Source of the DNA: a virus
Lineage: Duplodnaviria; Heunggongvirae; Uroviricota; Caudoviricetes
Direction: 5' to 3' (one strand)
DNA length: 23,390 nt
Virus record (IMG/VR): IMGVR_UViG_2537561977_000031
Span: 1-23,390 of that record
Of the stretch, positions 1 through 20,424 are shown in pieces. Position numbers and translations under genes: made by a program. Below the pieces are notes generated by a model, which worked only from the letters and a program-made list of their open reading frames with translations, made no database searches and was not told the origin of the DNA. Each line of letters opens with the position of its first letter. Positions within the stretch are counted from its first letter, which is position 1.

Positions 1-874
<874 letters not shown>

Positions 875-1177
875 CATGTAATTTATGAGTGTCTTCTGCT
901 TGATTCCTCTGCTGGCGAGGATTTTTTCGTAGCGATCAAGCCATGAATGTAACGTAACAGAATTATCACTGTTGATTCTCGCTGTCAGAGGCTTGTGTTT
1001 GTGTCCTGAAAATAACTCAATGTTGGCCTGTATAGCTTCAGTGATTGCGATTCGCCTGTCTCGGCCTAATCCAAACTCTTTACCCGTCCTTGGGTCCCTG
1101 TAGCAGTAATATCCATTGTTTCTTATATAAAGGTTAGGGGGTAAATCCCGGCGCTCATGACTTCGCCTTCTTCCCAT
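875..1177 (-). pseudogene. int: Lambda-type integrase, N-terminal arm-binding fragment only (101 codons), cut by the IS3-family insertion
   Basis: ORF 872..1177 starts MGRRRSHERRDLPPNLYIRNNGYYCYRDPRTGKEFGLGRDRRIAITEAIQANIELF..., matching lambda Int as I recall it, then runs into the IS terminus; catalytic domain absent. Confidence 0.9.
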
Positions 1178-1373
1178 TTCTGATCCTCTTCAAAAGGCTA
1201 CCTGTTACTGGTCGATTTAAGTCAACCTTTACCGCTGATTCGTGGAACAAATACTCTCTTCCATCCTTAACCGGAGGAGGGAATATCCTGCACTCGCGTA
1301 CCCATCGACGAACTGTTTCAAGGCTCCTTGGGCGTCGCTGGCGTGCGTTCCACTCCTGAAGTGTCAAGTACAT
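1155..1373 (-). CDS. xis: Excisionase Xis (lambda-type, 72 aa)
   Basis: MYLTLQEWNARQRRPRSLETVRRWVRECRIFPPPVKDGREYLFHESAVKVDLNRP...; overlaps int start by 23 nt as in lambda. Confidence 0.9.
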   Translation of the reverse strand: MYLTLQEWNARQRRPRSLETVRRWVRECRIFPPPVKDGREYLFHESAVKVDLNRPVTGSLLKRIRNGKKAKS

Positions 1374-1429
1374 CGCAAAGTCTCCGCAATTACTCGCAAG
1401 GGAGCGAGTATTGGTTTATTTTCTCCAAC

Positions 1430-1449
1430 AAAAAAGGAGCCGAAGCTCC
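1430..1449 (-). terminator. Candidate rho-independent terminator between the AntA-like gene and xis
   Basis: Minus-strand hairpin GGAGC-TTCG-GCTCC followed by TTTTTT. Confidence 0.4.
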
Positions 1450-1457
1450 TTTGATGA

Positions 1458-2081
1458 TTAAAATTCGAATTGTCTCGCCCGAAGGCTTTTCAGCATTGGT
1501 TTTGCCCGTTCGAAAAGGGCGCTTGCTTGGTCAAGTCGTGTCGCCTCCCTTAGCAGTACATCTCTGTTTTTCGTCACCGTGTAAAAAGTTTCAAACGCGA
1601 TGTCATACAGCTTGCTCGTGTATGATGAGTTCAGTTCCTTCAATATCGGGTACAGACGTTTGCAGATGTCCTGCGCATTCTCCATCTGTACCTGCATATA
1701 GCAAAGGAGGATGATTTCTTCGTCTGTGAATTGCTGCGCTGGTTGCATGCTGCGAAGTTTCTTTTCGCACTCGATGAAGTATCGGCGTATCTGGCGGCCT
1801 TTTTCGTTACGCTCGACCATCGCCGTTTCTTTGGCTGTATCGAGGGTGAGGTGATAGTCTTTGCTACGGCGATCGCCTCCACGTCCTTTGATCCCCCTGT
1901 TTTGGTGAACCAAAATGTAATCGACATCAACGGCAAAGCCGTATTCTGTTATGCGATTTTTAATCCATGTAGAGAAGTCACGACGTACTTCCAAAAATTC
2001 GTGTAAATCACGGGCATTAACGAGAAGAGTTGTTTCGTTGGATATAGTGCCGTTGAATACGGGGATGAGTTGACTGGTCAT
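1458..2081 (-). CDS. Phage antirepressor-like protein (AntA/AntB-type N-terminal domain), 207 aa
   Basis: ORF with AAGGAC SD before the ATG; N-terminal LIPVFNGT...LLVNARDLHEFLEV..DFSTWIKNRITEYGF pattern resembling AntA/AntB family; family assignment from memory. Confidence 0.5.
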   Translation of the reverse strand: MTSQLIPVFNGTISNETTLLVNARDLHEFLEVRRDFSTWIKNRITEYGFAVDVDYILVHQNRGIKGRGGDRRSKDYHLTLDTAKETAMVERNEKGRQIRRYFIECEKKLRSMQPAQQFTDEEIILLCYMQVQMENAQDICKRLYPILKELNSSYTSKLYDIAFETFYTVTKNRDVLLREATRLDQASALFERAKPMLKSLRARQFEF

Positions 2082-2230
2082 TTTTATGTCCTTTGCATTT
2101 GTTCAGATAGCCCTGTGTTCAGCAGGGCGGTCAGGTACTTGAACACCGTGCAAAGTCGGCCCGTATCCTTAACCTTTCGGCTGTTTTTCGGTATACGCGC
2201 TACCCGACCATATCTGAAAAATGGACATAA

Positions 2231-2258
2231 AAAATCCGCATGACTGACGGGTGCGGTT
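2231..2258 (-). terminator. Weak candidate terminator downstream of the ORF6N gene
   Basis: Minus-strand hairpin CCGCA...TGCGG followed by ATTTTTTA. Confidence 0.3.
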
Positions 2259-2402
2259 TCCGCTTTGCAAGGTGTGTTCAGCACCATGAAGCGGAATATA
2301 GCCCCGTTAATGCGGTGTTGTCAAATCATGTAGGCCTTATCTTGCTGTAAGCCGCGCCATTCGGGCTTTTCCCCACATTTGGGGAAAACTATCTTGTCAA
2401 AA

Positions 2403-3185
2403 TCATGCAGCCTTTCGCCCTCCTTCGATGAGTTCCTCTATTTTGTGCACTCCAGCCTCGTTGTACCGAAATGTTTCAACCTGCTTGTCATTGTGCGCCG
2501 ATTTGTCGATGAACCACTTCCCGTACTTTTCTGTTTTGAGCATGTAGGTGTTGGCTATGCGTCCTACCTTGTTGGCTGAAATACCGTAGCGCTGGCCGAC
2601 TTCCGTAGCAGAGTAGTAGTGCTCTGAGATAGCTGGCAGAGGTACAACATCGCGACCAACAATCGGGTTGAACACTCCAGCTACTGCTGCCTGCTTTGAT
2701 TCTGAGGACAGATTCGGGAACATATTCACCAGTCGATCCGCCACGTTCAAAGCTATTTCCATGGCTCGCGCACGGTCTAGGCTACTTTCTGGTTGCGGTA
2801 CTGGTTGAGGATGGTTGGCAACCTTTTCGCGCTGATTGAAGTAGCCGTCCTCCAGTTTTTCGAACACGTCCCATGCCTGATCCGTTTCGAGCATCTTCGC
2901 GTGACGGGCGGCTCCGCGCTCTGTCCAGAGGATGAGGTGGCGTGCATTTGGGGCAATTTTCACAAAGTAGTTTAAAGCTACTTTGTGTTTTAGCGCGCGC
3001 AGCTCGTCACCAACGACCTTGTAGAAGTGTACCCCCTCAACAAAGCGCGACTTGTTTTCATGATGGTTTTGCCGGATGCGCACAACATCCGTTCCGTACA
3101 ACTGCGCCAATAGTTCGCTGGTGATGACGTTGGTTTGTTTGTAGGTGATTGGTGAAAGTGTTTCAACAGAAATTTGAGCATTCAT
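2403..3185 (-). CDS. ORF6N-domain antirepressor-like protein, 260 aa
   Basis: GAGGA SD before ATG; N-terminal domain with HHENKSRF...[22 protein letters not shown], close paralog of the N-terminus of ORF 17062..17748. Confidence 0.7.
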   Translation of the reverse strand: MNAQISVETLSPITYKQTNVITSELLAQLYGTDVVRIRQNHHENKSRFVEGVHFYKVVGDELRALKHKVALNYFVKIAPNARHLILWTERGAARHAKMLETDQAWDVFEKLEDGYFNQREKVANHPQPVPQPESSLDRARAMEIALNVADRLVNMFPNLSSESKQAAVAGVFNPIVGRDVVPLPAISEHYYSATEVGQRYGISANKVGRIANTYMLKTEKYGKWFIDKSAHNDKQVETFRYNEAGVHKIEELIEGGRKAA

Positions 3186-3251
3186 AGCGTCCTCACATTG
3201 GCTTTTGCATTGAAGAAAGCTTGACGGTGAACTCGCCGTAACGAGTTCAGA

Positions 3252-3286
3252 TAAAAGAAATCCCCGCGAGTGCGAGGATTGTTATT
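3252..3286 (-). terminator. Candidate rho-independent terminator
   Basis: Minus-strand hairpin ATCCTCGC-ACTC-GCGGGGAT followed by TTCTTTTAT. Confidence 0.45.
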
Positions 3287-3309
3287 TACCTTTGACGGCA
3301 AGTTGCAGG

Positions 3310-3528
3310 TTAGCCACGGTTAACCTCCTGCGGCGGTTCTGGTAGCTGCATCCAGTGGGTTACCTCTTTGAGATACAGGTCTTCGCCATCACCGTCATCC
3401 CAAGTGGGATTGCCATCATTAAACCAGTCGCCATATACGCCGACCTGAGTGTTGGGGATGTTTGGTGGGTAGTTGTTTTTAAAGTCAGCTGTTAACACAT
3501 AGCATTGTCGCTCTCCCATTTCTGGCAT
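3310..3528 (-). CDS. Small phage protein, DUF551-like (72 aa)
   Basis: C-terminal THWMQLPEPP motif recalled as typical of DUF551 prophage proteins. Confidence 0.55.
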   Translation of the reverse strand: MPEMGERQCYVLTADFKNNYPPNIPNTQVGVYGDWFNDGNPTWDDGDGEDLYLKEVTHWMQLPEPPQEVNRG

Positions 3529-3546
3529 TCGCTCACTACAGCTTAT

Positions 3547-3840
3547 CTAGGCATCCGGAGTTACCGGCACTGGCTGGGCGGTATAAAGCGGTGTTATATC
3601 TGCCCGAAAATTACATGCTTTATGCAGCCGCACCCACCGTTCGACTTCTGCTTTGTCAGAATACATACCAGTGAACGTGTTATATTCACGGTCAATTTGC
3701 GTGAAGGTTACCTTCCACGCCACCGGCTCTGCTGTCAGCGATGCCAGAGCAATTTCATAAGCACGGCGTTCAACATTGTCTCGCACATCCAAACTGCTGA
3801 TACGCTCTTTGATTTCTTTAATCAGTTCTTTGTCGTTCAC
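3547..3840 (-). CDS. Hypothetical phage protein (97 aa)
   Basis: ORF in compact minus-strand early-left operon; no recognisable family. Confidence 0.55.
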   Translation of the reverse strand: MNDKELIKEIKERISSLDVRDNVERRAYEIALASLTAEPVAWKVTFTQIDREYNTFTGMYSDKAEVERWVRLHKACNFRADITPLYTAQPVPVTPDA

Positions 3841-3920
3841 TTATGCCTCCGATTCCCGGATGTCACCCAAATCAACGCTACAATGCCAACCAGTGCAACG
3901 AGCGCAAAACTATCAAGCAT
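3841..3920 (-). CDS. Small hydrophobic peptide (26 aa), candidate
   Basis: MLDSFALVALVGIVALIWVTSGNRRHK; its ATG overlaps the stop of the upstream Ea22-like gene (ATGCTTGA) suggesting translational coupling; below ORF-track threshold. Confidence 0.3.
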
Positions 3921-4416
3921 CTCCAACCTCTTTAACGGTAACTGTCTGTGCCTCCAGTTCTGCTATGCGCTTTTCTGAGGCTTCAAGTAACGCCTGCTTA
4001 TCGCGTAGCGCTTCTTCCAGTTCAGCAACATGGCATTCACTATCAATAAGGTTGTTCTCTGCTGCTTCCAGCTCAACACGCAACTTCCCTACCGTTAGCG
4101 CAATTTCCTCGTTCTCCTGATCGCGGCTTTTGATGTATTGCAGGTTTCTTTCCCGTTCATCCAGTAGTGCCAGCGCAACATTTGGATTAAAAGCAGCAAT
4201 AAATTCAGCGTTTGCATAAGCCTGAACATCTGTTTCAACCAGGCAGTTAACATGACATTCCGCAATCACACCACCGGGTTCTCCTTTCCATTTTTGACAA
4301 ACAAAAACTCCTGTTATATTCCCATGCTGATTGCCCGATGTATGCCCTACGATGTAGCTCCCTTTCGTTGCCTTTTCTGCCGCATCACGCAGTGCCTGAT
4401 AATTAATTTCGCTCAC
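3913..4416 (-). CDS. Ead/Ea22-like protein (167 aa, GTG start)
   Basis: MSEINYQALR... and LLDERERNLQYIKSRDQENEEIALTVGKLRVEL coiled-coil region resembling Ea22-like prophage proteins. Confidence 0.6.
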   Translation of the reverse strand: MSEINYQALRDAAEKATKGSYIVGHTSGNQHGNITGVFVCQKWKGEPGGVIAECHVNCLVETDVQAYANAEFIAAFNPNVALALLDERERNLQYIKSRDQENEEIALTVGKLRVELEAAENNLIDSECHVAELEEALRDKQALLEASEKRIAELEAQTVTVKEVGDA

Positions 4417-4538
4417 TTCGAACCTCTCTGTTTACTGATAAGCTCCAGATCTGCATTAAGCGCAGCAAAAATCTCTGGTGGTGTGCGCCAGCTGTCGCGA
4501 TGTTCGGCAGGAGTATTGCTTCCGGTGAAATCAGTCAT
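4413..4538 (-). CDS. Small ORF (41 aa), candidate
   Basis: [41 protein letters not shown]; start overlaps upstream stop (ATGA) and stop overlaps Ea22-like GTG (GTGA). Confidence 0.35.
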   Translation of the reverse strand: MTDFTGSNTPAEHRDSWRTPPEIFAALNADLELISKQRGSK

Positions 4539-4693
4539 ACAGCCCCCCGTTTATTATTTATCTCCTCAGCCAGCCGCTGTGCTTTCAGTGGATTTCTGAT
4601 AACAGAAAGGCCGGGAAATACCCAGCCTCGCTTTGTAACGGAGTAGATGAAAGTGATCGCACCTACCCGGATATTATCGCGAGGATGCTTCAT
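4535..4693 (-). CDS. Small ORF (52 aa) immediately downstream of exo, candidate
   Basis: [52 protein letters not shown]; ATG overlaps exo stop (ATGA). Confidence 0.4.
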
Positions 4694-5370
4694 CGCCATT
4701 GCTCCCCAAATACAAAACCAATTTCAGCCAGTGCCTCGTCCATTTTTTCGATGAACTCCGGCACCATCTCGTCAAAATTCGCCATGTACCTTTCATCCCG
4801 CTCAACCACGACATAATGCAGGCCTTCACGCTTCATGCGCGGGTCATAGTTGGCAAAGTACCAGGCATCTTTTCGCGTCACCCACATGCTGTACTGCACC
4901 TGGGCCATGTAAGCCGACTTTATGGCCTCGAAACCACCGAGCCGGAACTTCATGAAATCCCGGGAGGTAAACGGGCATTTCAGCTCAAGGCCATTGCCGT
5001 CACTGCATAAACCATCGGGAGAGCAGGCGGTGCGCATACTTTCGTCGCGATAGATGATCGGGGATTCAGTAACATTCACGCCGGAAGTGAATTCAAACAG
5101 AGTTCTGGCGTCGTTCTCGTACTGTTTTCCCCATGCCAGCGCCTTAGCATTAACTTCCGGAGCCACACCGGTGCAAACCTCAGCCAGCAGGGTGTGGAAG
5201 TAGGACATTTTCATGTCAGGCCACTTCTTTCCTGAGCGGGGCTTTGCTATCACGTTGTGAACTTCTGAAGCGGTGATGACGCCGAGCCGTAATTTGTGCC
5301 ACGCATCATCTCCCTGCTCGATAGCTCTCACGTCGATCCCGGTACGCTGCAGGATAATGTCCGGTGTCAT
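4690..5370 (-). CDS. exo: Lambda-type exonuclease (Red alpha)
   Basis: 226 aa, [54 protein letters not shown]... matches lambda Exo as I recall it. Confidence 0.95.
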
Positions 5371-6453: not shown

Positions 6454-6468
6454 GGTAATGACTCCAAC

Positions 6469-6972
6469 TTACTGATAGTGTTTTATGTTCAGATAATGCC
6501 CGATGACCTTGTCATGCAGCTCCACCGATTTTGAGAACGACAGTGACTTCCGTCCCAGCCTTGCCAGATGTTGTCTCAGATTCAGATTATGTCGCTCAAT
6601 GCGCTGAGTGTAACGCTTGCTGATAACGTGCAGCTTTCCCTTCAGGCGTGATTCATACAGCGGCCAGCCATCCGTCATCCATACCACGACCTCAAAGGCC
6701 GACAGCAGGCTCAGAAGACGCTCCAGTGTGGCCAGAGTGCGTTCACCGAAGACGTGCGCCACAACCGTCCTCCGTATCCTGTCATACGCGTAAAACAGCC
6801 AGCGCTGACGTGATTTAGCACCGACGTAGCCCCACTGTTCGTCCATTTCAGCGCAGACAATCACATCACTGCCCGGTTGTATGCGCGAGGTTACCGACTG
6901 CGGCCTGAGTTTTTTAAGTGACGTAAAACCGTGTTGAGGCCAACGCCCATAATGCGTGCACTGGCGCGACAT
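6469..6972 (-). CDS. insB: IS1 transposase InsB
   Basis: 167 aa ORF, ...[19 protein letters not shown]... Confidence 0.9.
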
Positions 6973-7166
6973 CCGACGCCATTCATGGCCATATCAATGA
7001 TTTTCTGGTGCGTACCGGGCTGAGAGGCGGTGTAAGTGAACTGTAGTTGCCATGTTTTACGGCAATGAGAGCAGAGATAGCGCTGATGTCCGGCAGTGCT
7101 TTTGCCGTTACGCACCACGCCTTCAGTAGCGGAGCAGGAAGGACATCTGATGGAAATGGAAGCCAC
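6891..7166 (-). CDS. insA: IS1 InsA
   Basis: 91 aa, [43 protein letters not shown]... Confidence 0.9.
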
Positions 7167-7221
7167 GCAAGCACCTTAAAATCACCATCATACACTAAAT
7201 CAGTAAGTTGGCAGCATTACC

Positions 7222-8283: not shown

Positions 8284-8991
8284 TTACCAGCTATGCGATG
8301 ACCAGAATACTCTGCCAATAATCCTTACGGTTTTATGAAATTCATCTCTATCCATTACTTCATCCGGGTACTCTTCGCGATTTATTGATCTGATTATCAC
8401 CGATGTAGGAGTGGCGATTAATGTTTTTACTCGCAACAAATCAGACTGGCAAATAGCGTAGGTTTTACCATCTCTGATGGTGGTATCTTGTGTGTTAACA
8501 CCAACAACATCGCCATCGTGAAGAGTTGGTTCCATGCTTTGACCTGTTACCCTTACCAGCTTGGCAGAACTTTCAGTTACCCCCATCTTTTTCAGATAGT
8601 ACTTTCTGAAAACCAAAGAGAACTCTGATGATTCTTCTATCTCGCAGCTACCGCTTCCAGCCGAAAGCGAAACGTTAAGAAGAGGCAATGCGACAAACTC
8701 GTCATCGTTTTTTTTAATGTCTTCCCATACCACAGCTTTTAAAGATGACTCACGGATATTGGATGGTTCTTCATGTGTACCATCCCTCATTTCACCAATA
8801 CCAGAACTAAGCCATTCAGGGCGTACTTTTAAAGCATTAGCTAACTCAACCATCTTGCGAGATCCGTTTGTTTTACCGGATGACATCTTCTGTATGGCTG
8901 GCTGAGATATTCCAACCATGTCCGCAAGCTGTGATTGCGACACCCCTGCCGATCTCATGGCTGCATTTAGTCTTTCTGCGAATGTTTTCAT
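8284..8991 (-). CDS. cI: CI-type prophage repressor (N-terminal HTH, C-terminal S24 LexA-like peptidase); start likely at Met 8991 (track ORF begins at a TTG at 9021)
   Basis: HTH segment QSQLADMVGISQPAIQKMSSG; peptidase motif GQSMEPTLHDGD with downstream Lys; divergent from cro. Confidence 0.85.
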   Translation of the reverse strand: MKTFAERLNAAMRSAGVSQSQLADMVGISQPAIQKMSSGKTNGSRKMVELANALKVRPEWLSSGIGEMRDGTHEEPSNIRESSLKAVVWEDIKKNDDEFVALPLLNVSLSAGSGSCEIEESSEFSLVFRKYYLKKMGVTESSAKLVRVTGQSMEPTLHDGDVVGVNTQDTTIRDGKTYAICQSDLLRVKTLIATPTSVIIRSINREEYPDEVMDRDEFHKTVRIIGRVFWSSHSW

Positions 8992-9102
8992 ATCCACAAA
9001 TCTATAACTACGGTTATCCAAAGTAAAATAATAAAGGTTATTGCTATCTTTTATAACTTGGGTTATCCTTGGTTATAAGTAATGGCTGAAAGAGGTATGC
9101 TC
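8992..9102. promoter_or_regulatory. Divergent operator/promoter region (OR-like) between cI and cro
   Basis: Two 14-bp palindromes ATAAC-N4-GTTAT at 9004-9017 and 9051-9064 plus further GTTAT/TTATAA half-sites. Confidence 0.5.
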
Positions 9103-18077: not shown

Positions 18078-18844
18078 ATGCCGTAATTATTGCCAACGCA
18101 GAAATCGTGCCGATTGAGTTTAATGGCGAGCGTGTTGTTACGTATCAAATGATTGCTGATATTCACGGGGTTCCAGTAGCCACTATTCAAAATGGCTATG
18201 CGCGAAACTCTGAGTATTTCATAGACAGGGAAGATACATATTTTATTGATTTTCATGAAAATACCTTTAGAAGGGGTTTTGAAATTCCTCCTCGTGGCAT
18301 GCGAGTTTTCACTGAATCAGGCTATTTGATGCTGGTTAAAACCCTGCGCGACGAGACGGCGTGGAGAGTGCAACGTGAGCTTGTTCGCAATTATTTTCGT
18401 GGCCAAAAAGAAGATAAGTCAGCCTTGCCCGACTTCACAAACCCTGCTGAAGCCGCCAGAGCGTGGGCAAACGAATATGAGCAGAAAGTGAAGCTGGAGC
18501 AACAACTCGCGATTGCCGCACCTAAAGTTGAGTTTGCCGATCGCGTTGGCGAGGCCAGCGGAATTTTGATTGGAAACTTTGCAAAGGTTGTTGGTATTGG
18601 CCCAAACAAACTGTTTGCGTGGATGCGTGATCACAAAATCCTTATTGCTTCAGGTTCCCGGCGCAATGTGCCAATGCAGGAATATATGGATCGCGGCTAT
18701 TTCACAGTGAAAGAAACAGCGGTCAACACAAATCACGGAATACAGATATCGTTCACCACAAAAATCACCGGGCGTGGTCAACAGTGGCTGACCAGAAAGC
18801 TGCTCGATAACGGAATGCTGAAAGTAACAGGGGAGGCTGCATGA
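18074..18844 (+). CDS. Phage antirepressor (ORF6N-like N-terminal domain plus KilAC C-terminal domain), 256 aa
   Basis: SD AAGGAGG; C-terminal FADRVGEASGILIGNFAKVVGIGPNKLFAWMRDHKILI...RRNVPMQEYMDRGYFTV resembles KilAC; ATG overlaps Rha stop. Confidence 0.7.
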   Translation: MNAVIIANAEIVPIEFNGERVVTYQMIADIHGVPVATIQNGYARNSEYFIDREDTYFIDFHENTFRRGFEIPPRGMRVFTESGYLMLVKTLRDETAWRVQRELVRNYFRGQKEDKSALPDFTNPAEAARAWANEYEQKVKLEQQLAIAAPKVEFADRVGEASGILIGNFAKVVGIGPNKLFAWMRDHKILIASGSRRNVPMQEYMDRGYFTVKETAVNTNHGIQISFTTKITGRGQQWLTRKLLDNGMLKVTGEAA

Positions 18845-20268: not shown

Positions 20269-20343
20269 GGGTCAGTCGTATAAAGGTCATTACGGAAGGC
20301 TGTTAACCTTCTTATCGTGGTTCGAGTCCACGCTGTCCCGCCA
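20269..20343 (+). tRNA. tRNA-like gene, anticodon GTT (Asn) by manual fold; one U-U mismatch in acceptor stem and a 3-bp D stem
   Basis: Acceptor GGGTCAG/CTGTCCC, anticodon stem GAAGG/CCTTC with loop CTGTTAA, T arm CGTGG-TTCGAGT-CCACG, discriminator G, encoded CCA. Confidence 0.5.
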
Positions 20344-20348
20344 AATAT

Positions 20349-20424
20349 GCTGGTTTAGCTCTAATGGTAGAGCAGTCGCCTTGTAAGCGAATGGGTAGCG
20401 GTTCAAGTCCGTTAACCAGCACCA
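20349..20424 (+). tRNA. tRNA gene, anticodon TGT (Thr) by manual fold
   Basis: Perfect 7-bp acceptor GCTGGTT/AACCAGC, D arm GCTC-TAATGGTA-GAGC, anticodon loop CTTGTAA, T loop TTCAAGT, encoded CCA. Confidence 0.65.

Follow-up and report, generated by a model that had tools for sequence, protein, structure and literature searches.

The two ORF6N-containing genes of the prophage analyzed here most probably carry diverged modules of one protein family that occupy two different accessory slots, with one gene (C) placed under an isrK/C4-type RNA leader and the other (B) representing a mosaic that is read from the PL operon. The window, by which we mean the entire 23,390-nucleotide stretch of viral DNA under study, had initially been annotated as carrying an inverted pair of ORF6N paralogs. 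Both open reading frames and both ORF6N domains are indeed present (B at 2403..3185 on the minus strand, 260 amino acids; C at 17062..17748 on the plus strand, 228 amino acids), but neither gene was copied from the other. The ORF6N matches of B (residues 12-98, nucleotides 2892-3152) and of C (residues 12-99, nucleotides 17095-17358) score 71.5 and 75.3 bits, respectively, against a gathering score of 27.8 for Pfam PF10543, and the two proteins are clearly related (BLASTP E = 3e-61). Their C-termini are unrelated, as the initial annotation had stated, since only 19 of 142 positions are identical. Specifically, C carries a P22_AR_C domain (residues 128-200, nucleotides 17443-17661; 98.6 bits), and the C-terminal module of B (residues ~130-260, nucleotides 2403-2798) has no Pfam assignment. 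P22_AR_N is absent from both proteins in Pfam searches, with ORF6N in its place.

Two accessory slots of a decayed lambdoid prophage

The host element is a decayed lambda-like (lambdoid) prophage that has been broken up by IS3-family, IS1 and IS110-family insertions, and in which int is truncated, N is absent and the primase-helicase gene is frameshifted. In an annotated twin prophage (L001), the left part reads int-xis-AntA-B-DUF551-Ea22-exo-bet-gam, and the order continues with cI / cro-cII-O-P-ninB-ninE-HigBA-C-Rha'-D-rusA-ninH-Q. Of the two standard lambdoid accessory positions, B occupies the exo-xis region (leftward PL operon) and C the nin region (rightward PR operon). The genes are inverted relative to one another simply because the PL and PR operons diverge from the immunity region. 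A third and distant ORF6N protein is encoded by gene D (18074..18844, plus strand), which combines ORF6N (41.4 bits; PF10543 cutoff 27.8) with ANT/KilAC, is preceded by a Rha-family remnant (17817-18077), and is ~23% identical to B and to C. NCBIfam searches with B, C, D and the AntA-type protein A returned no matches, and no relative of B or C with a solved structure was found by sequence at E ≤ 1.

Gene B as a mosaic in an exchangeable slot

In related prophages, the B slot is filled by another gene (X) that shares with B only the C-terminal module, at 65% amino acid identity overall and 90% nucleotide identity over the last 200 nucleotides. Relative to the X-type slot, B-specific DNA begins at ~3233. 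A terminator-like hairpin upstream of B (3280-3259 on the minus strand; -13 kcal/mol, with a U-rich tail) is also found upstream of X, and thus it belongs to the slot and not to B. Since both this module and the upstream terminator are common to X and B, the B gene represents a module replacement rather than an insertion. The same C-terminal module also follows a Bro-N domain in P0008. These comparisons show that B is a mosaic in which ORF6N has been joined to the C-terminal module of the usual slot gene and of a Bro-N protein. The slot itself is an exchangeable cassette position between prophages.

The initial annotation had further portrayed B and C as independently acquired morons, each lying between terminator-like hairpins. 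It is true that both are accessory antirepressor-type genes and that the B slot is exchangeable, but B does not fit the definition of a moron, given that it has no promoter of its own and has not been inserted between genes that are neighbors in related phages. No sigma-70-like site is present between the upstream terminator and the start codon of B in a simple consensus scan, which a weak or non-sigma-70 promoter could escape, and the sole promoter-like site within positions 1-5000 lies downstream of B (2324-2295). The hairpins upstream of B and downstream of C are good ones. The hairpin just after the B stop codon (2367..2388) lacks a U-tract in the sense of B and is therefore a poor intrinsic terminator for this gene, and the one assigned to the upstream side of C is the terminator of isrK. 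Likewise, C does not stand as a simple terminator-flanked unit but behind a promoter-isrK-C4 leader, although it does have a promoter and a terminator of its own.

Rfam models for C4, isrK and Xcc1 found nothing upstream of B at E ≤ 5, nor anything upstream of the B-type genes of L005, L007, L008 and L010, and neither of the paired target motif sets described below is present in the 5' untranslated region (UTR) of B. We also considered whether this UTR is the remnant of a C4 leader. The B-specific boundary does hold a tempting 8-nucleotide match (AGTTCACC), yet local alignment with C4 leaders is no better than that of shuffled sequences (p ~ 0.07 versus C; 0.55-0.94 versus Gifsy-1 and S51). 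In an intact phage, B would be made only when N-antiterminated PL transcription passes through the upstream terminator. Because the N gene has been lost to IS1 in the window copy, this proposed route would be inoperable there.

What B does is suggested by its relatives and by modeling. Over its full length it fits the profile of phrog_1726 'anti-repressor' (E = 2e-91), a family of ORF6N-domain proteins of Shigella and E. coli prophages whose name is inherited. It is conceivable, though we judge it a lesser possibility, that the name misleads and that B acts as a sequence-specific DNA-binding regulator, as is thought for Roi, Rha and KilA-N-type proteins, or as an effector of a host target. P22_AR_C gives no match to B in Pfam even at E ≤ 10, and the C-terminal module gave no sign of KilAC/ANT, for which Pfam returns nothing and hhalign against gene D aligned the ORF6N part only. 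An AlphaFold model of moderate quality (pLDDT 72) renders residues ~187-260 as a helix-turn-helix plus a β-hairpin, for which the best local matches are small winged-helix/MerR/Xis/BldC-type DNA binders, and B lies outside the C4 control typical of A-, C- and AnrP-type genes. The model thus leaves room for B as a regulator that binds DNA instead of an antirepressor. These structural matches are nonetheless non-significant (E ≥ 0.1), and a Foldseek search of the PDB yielded only local winged-helix/MerR-like matches and none at E ≤ 0.001. Furthermore, the C-terminal module weakly matches phrog_130 'anti-repressor Ant' (E = 2e-4), and the ORF6N module is common to B, AnrP and φ24B Ant, of which the latter two have derepression phenotypes.

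Given the insertions and the damage to int, N and the primase-helicase gene, B might also be viewed as a functionless relic, and it is frameshifted in strain 720632. We consider this rather unlikely. The B reading frame is intact in the window, its exact sequence occurs on 34 contigs in a collection of ~15 billion proteins, and its 90%-identity cluster holds 59 members from Shigella flexneri, S. dysenteriae, S. boydii and E. coli. Annotated proteins from Shigella and E. coli (e.g. WP_038341319.1) reach 95-100% identity to B, and E. coli and Arsenophonus also have more distant homologues that align over the full length (45-63% identity).

An isrK/C4-type leader precedes gene C

The region upstream of C contains the components of a known antisense control system. 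A PisrK-type promoter (16790..16819, plus strand), which forms one arm of an inverted repeat (I2), is followed by the isrK sRNA (16826..16899; Rfam RF01394, 68.3 bits, above the gathering threshold). This RNA ends in its own intrinsic terminator (16879-16894, then U7) and carries a1/b1-type motifs (TTGGCGT at 16850-16856 and TCGAAAC at 16865-16871). Next comes a C4 antisense RNA (16926..17010; Rfam RF01695, 68.7 bits, cutoff 45) whose loop (GTTTCGA, 16969-16975) and bulge (ACGCCAA, 16982-16988) are exposed. The a2/b2-type targets in the C 5' UTR (17014..17050; TTGGCGT at 17014-17020 and TCGAAAC at 17044-17050) sit immediately 5' of the Shine-Dalgarno sequence. C thus has both a C4-family RNA upstream and paired motifs, as is characteristic of a C4-controlled module, and an intrinsic terminator follows the gene (17766..17785; -16 kcal/mol, then U6). 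The exact C sequence occurs on 31 contigs of the ~15 billion-protein collection.

For each of the two exposed C4 segments, an exact 7-nucleotide complement is present in isrK and again immediately ahead of the C Shine-Dalgarno sequence, a pattern that none of 300 shuffles reached. This result comes from a search for exact complementary blocks, used in place of whole-length RNAduplex energies, which proved uninformative relative to shuffles (z between -2.8 and +1.0). The same a1b1-antisense-a2b2 layout recurs with differing recognition sequences in nine elements at six loci, and hence the pairing partners covary.

A predicted switch of different specificity precedes gene A

Adjoining B on its downstream side is a second C4-type switch, of the sRNA-Xcc1 family and with a specificity other than that of the C leader. 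It precedes gene A (1458..2081, minus strand), which encodes an AntA plus P22_AR_C antirepressor-type protein. The PisrK-type promoter of this left cassette (2295..2324, minus strand; TTGACA-18-TATATT with the conserved CGGGGCTATATTCC) forms the other arm of I2. An sRNA-like leader segment follows (2228..2288, minus strand), ending in a weak terminator hairpin and a U-tract and carrying two upstream target motifs, TGAACAC (2280-2274) and TGCAAAG (2269-2263). The Rfam isrK model finds no match in this segment at E ≤ 5, and we regard it as equivalent to isrK/a1b1 by position only. The C4-like antisense RNA (2121..2209, minus strand; Rfam sRNA-Xcc1 family, 68.3 bits) exposes CTTTGCA (2155-2149) and GTGTTCA (2146-2140), and the downstream motifs TGAACA (2105-2100) and TGCAAAG (2097-2091) lie just 5' of the A Shine-Dalgarno sequence. 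A, like C, therefore combines a family-matched antisense RNA (2209-2121) with paired motifs, although the motif sequences differ, and it is predicted to be controlled by the left leader. Spurious open reading frames called by annotation pipelines may overlie such RNAs, for example at 2084-2287. A and C do not form a second paralog pair, given that identity between the P22_AR_C domains of the two reaches just 27% across 59 amino acids.

We also considered LexA control of the kind found for Gifsy antirepressors. No LexA site (CTGT-N8-ACAG, at most one mismatch) occurs near either promoter, and the window-wide count equals the chance expectation; this possibility was dropped.

Counterparts in other phages

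Judged by sequence and gene layout, C is the counterpart of φ24B Ant and Gifsy-1 AnrP. The Ant protein of φ24B (vB_EcoP_24B) is 71% identical to C over the full length and has the same ORF6N plus P22_AR_C architecture. Its gene occupies the same slot, between ninE and a Roi/Rha-type gene upstream of Q, and it follows an isrK/c4-a1b1/C4 leader that resembles the C leader in layout, recognition sequences aside. The φ24B locus differs in having roi downstream, where the window has the Rha remnant and the ORF6N-KilAC gene, and it offers no counterpart of B. In φ24B, Ant speeds late expression, and knockout of ant lowers pR' late expression after induction to ~30-55% of wild type (Fogg et al., 2011; PMC3064807).

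The isrK-orf45-anrP locus of Gifsy-1 likewise has a PisrK-type promoter, a self-terminated isrK, a C4 element and an ORF6N protein, and the core of the PisrK promoter is conserved across both window cassettes, Gifsy-1 and φ24B. The N-terminal domain of AnrP (187 amino acids) is 65% identical to that of C and 57% identical to that of B, but its shorter C-terminus is unlike both. Furthermore, the Gifsy-1 locus lies downstream of Q whereas C is in the nin region. Gifsy-1 orf45 overlaps the anrP start (AUGA), whereas its positional analogue here, a 35-codon reading frame that overlaps C4 (16930-17037, plus strand), stops 24 nucleotides before the C ATG without overlapping the C start. In Gifsy-1, isrK supplied in trans raises anrP translation ~140-fold, and AnrP increases transcription of the antQ operon (Hershko-Shalev et al., 2016; PMC4825925).

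Two older paradigms are also relevant. The P22 Ant protein shares with C the last ~104 residues, which are 87-91% identical to those of P22-like/ε34 Ant (P22_AR_C), but in C its P22_AR_N domain is replaced by ORF6N. P22 Ant is controlled by Arc, Mnt and sar, whereas C has a C4-type RNA, and P22 Ant has nothing in common with B. Citron and Schuster reportedly described, in 1990, the immI operon of P1/P7 as a c4 antisense RNA followed by icd and ant. The window cassettes share with immI the two exposed antisense segments (a' and b'), a1/b1 motifs upstream, a2/b2 motifs at the ribosome-binding site, and differing specificities in differing elements. They differ in that P1/P7 are plasmid prophages and the present element is lambdoid, in that no icd homologue was identified in the window cassettes, and in that the proteins encoded downstream are chimeras of ORF6N or AntA type. 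The same c4-icd-ant order is given in a further source (PMC7313666).

A predicted course of regulation

By the logic of P1 immI, the PisrK-type promoter upstream of C would yield a short, terminated isrK carrying the a1/b1 motifs, and read-through past isrK would produce the C4 antisense RNA together with the ant (C) mRNA. Pairing of the two exposed C4 segments with the motifs beside the ant Shine-Dalgarno sequence would then keep translation off, and isrK, which carries identical motifs, could compete for C4. This scheme would also fit the manner in which Gifsy-1 isrK switches on anrP in trans. By analogy with the φ24B homologue and the literature on Gifsy-1 AnrP, C is predicted to bind or inactivate a CI/C2-type repressor, and once made it may help to relieve repression by the LexA-like CI repressor of this prophage (8284-9021).

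A more elaborate and decidedly speculative arrangement is a three-tier antirepressor network, comprising two C4-type switches and B outside RNA control but wired to PL/N. Here isrK/C4 would govern C, and the left leader sRNA with the sRNA-Xcc1-family RNA would govern A; both switches would use the same type of promoter (PisrK) with recognition sequences that do not cross-react. B would come into play only once induction is under way, and would then either lock in derepression or cross-induce co-resident prophages, much as Gifsy antirepressors act in trans. If such a network were real, the sRNA-Xcc1 family would be functionally equivalent to a C4-like antirepressor regulator.

Inversion and recent duplication

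The initial annotation had proposed that B and C, as independently acquired and terminator-insulated morons, provide ~330 bp of inverted homology that could flip the ~14-kb early region between them. Several observations are compatible with this idea: the genes are inverted, their N-terminal domains are homologous, C has its own promoter and terminator, the B slot is exchangeable, and hybrid reading frames produced by in-register crossover would remain open. However, the ~110-residue N-terminal domains that had been called nearly identical match at only 85 of 121 positions (70%). At the DNA level the two genes agree at 69% of 382 aligned columns and at 68% within the domain, which falls below the 70% under which the initial annotation itself held the proposal to fail. 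The best ungapped segment spans 132 nucleotides at 81% identity (2832..2963 on the minus strand and 17287..17418 on the plus strand) and encodes the conserved end of ORF6N, and the longest exact run shared by the two genes is 17 nucleotides. In E. coli, RecA-dependent recombination reportedly has a minimal efficient processing segment of ~23-27 bp, as determined by Shen and Huang in 1986, and thus the longest B/C match counts against inversion by this route. Exchange at ~20-30% divergence is also said, following the 1989 work of Rayssiguier and colleagues, to be strongly suppressed by mismatch repair.

Neither of the two predicted inversion junctions (J1 and J2) is covered to at least 80% in 5,426 complete E. 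coli genomes, although the power of this search is limited given that only three to four of these genomes carry B. Both hybrid proteins are absent among the ~15 billion proteins in which exact B and C are present. The window is collinear with its three closest prophages, and the annotation of the twin prophage L001 includes no invertase gene. The segment thus lacks inverted repeats of sufficient length and similarity, and only one orientation was seen in these collections. Together with the lack of a detectable promoter for B, these findings make the moron and inversion proposal highly improbable, and we consider it largely refuted already; the DNA similarity between B and C is too low to drive inversion.

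Even less credible is a recent duplication or gene conversion within the prophage followed by replacement of the C-terminus, which would account for the strong similarity of the last ~40 ORF6N codons (a 22-residue motif that is the sole fully identical stretch, and the 81% DNA identity) but not for the heavy divergence of synonymous sites (differing codons at 44 of the 85 identical residues), nor for ORF6N modules in other genomes that are at least as near to B (S51 Ant, 74%; C, 70%). Nineteen of the 25 mismatches in the 132-nucleotide core fall at third codon positions, which points to selection on a protein motif rather than recent duplication as the source of the similarity, and the conservation of this motif even in Arsenophonus and Gifsy-1 likewise argues for constraint at the protein level and against recent exchange. 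B and C are, on these alignments, long-diverged members of a modular ORF6N 'antirepressor-like' family.

Implications

ORF6N is an old and well-known module typical of phage antirepressor-type proteins, and the B/C pair is a routine case of a process described long ago, the shuffling of modules among antirepressor, Bro-N and KilA-N-type regulators of phages. The pair leaves current understanding unchanged and matters little in itself. Besides the spurious reading frames noted above, two by-products of the analysis are modestly useful. First, it provides a clean picture of the wiring between the Ant gene of Stx-type phages and an isrK/C4 leader that has target repeats in the style of P1. Second, it provides evidence for a1b1-antisense-a2b2 logic, with many specificities, in sRNA-Xcc1-family elements that precede AntA-, ORF6N- and Rha-type genes, where published notes have treated these elements only as unexplained sRNAs. 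Antirepressor control bears on prophage induction, and hence on the biology of Shiga-toxin phages.

A decayed lambdoid prophage with four antirepressor-type genes

The lambdoid prophage whose early region makes up the window has an Stx-phage-like backbone and is integrated beside ybhC; a prophage of E. coli FDAARGOS_944 (hereafter the twin) is 99.7% identical to the window. The left gene order is int'-xis-A-B-DUF551-Ea22-exo-bet-gam ... cI and the right order is cro-cII-O'-P-ninB-ninE-HigBA-C-Rha'-D-rusA-ninH-Q-tRNAs-lysis, with cI (8284-9021) coding for a LexA-like S24 repressor. Four antirepressor-type genes are composed of shuffled modules: A (1458-2081, minus strand) combines AntA with P22_AR_C, B (2403-3185, minus; 260 aa) combines ORF6N with an unassigned module, C (17062-17748, plus; 228 aa) combines ORF6N with P22_AR_C, and D (18074-18844, plus) combines ORF6N with ANT/KilAC. 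D is a distant third ORF6N paralog that shares ~23% identity with B and C, and its start is overlapped by an 86-aa Rha-family remnant (17817-18844 region, plus). Two tRNA genes (20269-20421, plus) lie 3' of Q, as in Stx phages; the lysis genes come directly after them, and stx is absent.

The prophage is decayed, with damage to int, the kil-cIII-N segment, the O-like gene and the primase-helicase. An IS3-family transposase ORF with an rve domain (27-866) abuts a truncated lambda-type integrase that retains only the arm-binding N-domain (872-1177, minus); int is intact in the twin. IS1 (6454-7220; transposase 6469-6972) replaces a ~2.4-kb kil-cIII-Nmad5-N' segment of the twin, and thus the window copy has no N antiterminator. 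An IS110-family element in the 9928-12152 region, with an ISEc20-like transposase (10291-11487, minus), divides the O-like HTH replication gene into two parts (9928-10296 and 11778-12152). The toprim primase-helicase (12260-15165, plus) is present as two overlapping ORFs of 578 and 410 aa through a single-base indel, which may be a genuine frameshift or an error in the sequencing; the twin carries one 968-aa gene at 99.97% identity.

B and C share an old N-terminal domain

The observation that drew attention to B and C is real but overstated. Both ORFs are present exactly as the initial annotation gave them, and both match Pfam ORF6N far above its gathering score, with the C-terminal 130 residues of B matching no family in a Pfam search. 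A shared domain joined to unrelated C-termini is borne out by BLASTP (E = 3e-61), wherein likeness is limited to the first ~120 residues and the C-terminal parts are unrelated (19/142 identical). The N-domains had been called nearly identical, which goes too far for 70% amino acid identity (85/121) and 68-69% DNA identity with several indels. The best ungapped DNA segment is a core of 132 nt at 81% identity (2832-2963 versus 17287-17418), and no exact match is longer than 17 nt. Given that third codon positions hold 19 of the 25 mismatches in this core, and that different codons are used at 44 of the 85 identical residues in the whole domain, the pattern of substitutions points to an old homology held by protein-level selection, chiefly on a 22-aa motif that is also kept in Gifsy-1 and Arsenophonus relatives.

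It had further been proposed that this homology could drive inversion of the intervening DNA, unless identity was under 70% over a span too short for recombination; the overall value of 69% is borderline or already below that limit. Efficient RecA-dependent exchange in E. coli generally needs a perfect match of ~23-27 bp, which the longest B/C run does not reach, and mismatch repair strongly suppresses exchange at 20-30% divergence. The two junctions expected from a crossover in the B/C core were built in silico, and neither is found at 80% coverage or more in 5,426 complete E. coli genomes, where the best matches are parental halves only; B occurs in only about four of these genomes, so the power of this search is limited. 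A crossover anywhere in the identical 22-aa stretch would yield two specific hybrid proteins, and both are absent among about 15 billion proteins that include both parental proteins. The three closest prophages are collinear with the window. Nothing thus supports inversion, within the power that the rarity of B allows. The inverted orientation of the two genes is the standard layout: B belongs to the PL operon, which runs leftward, and C to the PR operon, which diverges from it to the right.

C lies behind an isrK/C4 leader

Directly upstream of C, a strong PisrK-type promoter-like site (16790-16819, plus) precedes Rfam matches above the gathering threshold to the isrK sRNA (16826-16899, plus) and the C4 antisense RNA (16926-17010, plus). 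The C4 loop GTTTCGA is exactly complementary to TCGAAAC in isrK (16865-71) and in the 5'UTR of C (17044-50), where it adjoins the Shine-Dalgarno sequence, and the C4 bulge ACGCCAA is likewise complementary to TTGGCGT in isrK (16850-56) and the same 5'UTR (17014-20). The P1/P7 immI operon has this same a1/b1-c4-a2/b2 arrangement, and the order promoter-isrK/c4-a1b1-C4-ORF6N recurs in Gifsy-1 (isrK-orf45-anrP) and phi24B, with the promoter core TTGACA...CGGGGCTATATTCC kept in all three leaders. The phi24B Ant protein occupies the same slot and is 71% identical to C; over its C-terminal ~104 residues, C shares 87-91% identity with P22/epsilon34-type Ant.

In Gifsy-1, anrP translation rises about 140-fold when isrK is provided in trans, and AnrP increases transcription of the antQ operon (PMC4825925). 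After induction, phi24B deleted for ant shows late-promoter activity of only ~30-55% of wild type, with superinfection unaffected (PMC3064807). The shared leader, the likeness to phi24B Ant and this literature make C an addition to a known, partly characterised module. The upstream hairpin, previously read as a flanking terminator, is isrK's own terminator. A 35-codon ORF (16930-17037, plus) inside C4 corresponds in position to Gifsy-1 orf45 and P1 icd, although it stops 24 nt short of the C start codon, without overlap.

A HigB/HigA toxin-antitoxin pair (16142-16755, minus) separates ninE from the C cassette, and its promoter-like site (16781-16754) is arranged back-to-back with the PisrK-type promoter; in other prophages (loci L007-L009) the pair comes after a B-type gene. 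Elsewhere in the genome of the twin, a C-type leader and ant occur a second time (NZ_CP065613.1, 3569947-3570610; 98.8% identical over 664 nt); as a substrate for recombination between prophages, this copy far surpasses the B/C pair.

B carries an exchanged N-terminal module

The phrog_1726 profile ('anti-repressor') aligns with B from end to end. Its exact sequence occurs in 34 contigs, and its 90% cluster has 59 members from Shigella flexneri, S. dysenteriae, S. boydii and E. coli. Many other prophages have a different gene in this slot, between DUF551 and the A cassette: X (242 aa, WP_032344420), whose N-terminus is unrelated to that of B and whose C-terminal module is common to both (65% amino acid identity over 131 residues; 90% nucleotide identity across the final 200 nt). 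B and X also have in common the upstream terminator hairpin and a second hairpin, B-specific DNA begins only at about 3233, and the C-module of B is found behind a Bro-N domain in another protein. These comparisons show that B is a mosaic produced by N-terminal module exchange rather than an inserted moron.

No sigma-70-like promoter was found between the upstream terminator and the B start, no C4, isrK or Xcc1 match lies upstream of B in the window or of B-type genes in four other contexts, and the target motifs of both antisense RNAs are absent from the B 5'UTR. Most simply, B would be a delayed-early gene that N-modified polymerase reaches from PL by reading past the terminator, a route lost in the window copy, which lacks N. 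The view of B and C as independent morons holds in part: C is an autonomous unit, though a regulated and not merely insulated one, and B is module-swapped and has no promoter of its own. An AlphaFold model of B (pLDDT 72) has two domains, the C-terminal ~70 residues forming a helix-turn-helix and beta-hairpin with only weak structural matches to MerR/Xis/BldC-type DNA binders, and B may bind a repressor or DNA.

A second, putative antisense switch in front of A

Just downstream of B, a PisrK-type promoter (2324-2295, minus), which is the 36-nt inverted repeat I2, precedes a leader of ~60 nt (minus) ending in a hairpin with a U-tract, an Rfam match to the sRNA-Xcc1 family (2209-2121, minus), and then A. 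The exposed Xcc1 segments CTTTGCA and GTGTTCA are complementary to sites in the leader (2269-63 and 2280-74, respectively) and just 5' of the A Shine-Dalgarno sequence (2097-91 and 2105-00). The logic is that of the C switch with other recognition sequences, and there are no cross-matches between the left and right motifs. In a comparison of nine C4/Xcc1-type elements drawn from six loci, the exposed segments occupy the same positions with different sequences, and complements recur each time upstream and at the downstream ribosome binding site; this covariation supports the pairing model. In APSE phages, an ORF6N gene preceded by an sRNA-Xcc1 element was noted without explanation (PMC7313666). 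The sRNA-Xcc1 family appears to work like C4.

A 67-aa ORF (2084-2287, minus) overlaps the sRNA-Xcc1 match and leader; it matches no Pfam family and the annotation of the twin omits it, so it probably does not represent a gene. A different E. coli prophage (L007/L008, 6326-7776) has isrK, C4 and two sRNA-Xcc1-type elements, each with its own recognition sequence, stacked in tandem before a single ORF6N gene.

Implications

All parts of this system are of known kinds, namely ORF6N/antirepressor domain shuffling and isrK/C4 immI-type control. Only two points are mildly new: that two C4-type switches of different specificity are co-resident in one prophage, and that sRNA-Xcc1-family elements can be read as C4-like regulators of antirepressors.
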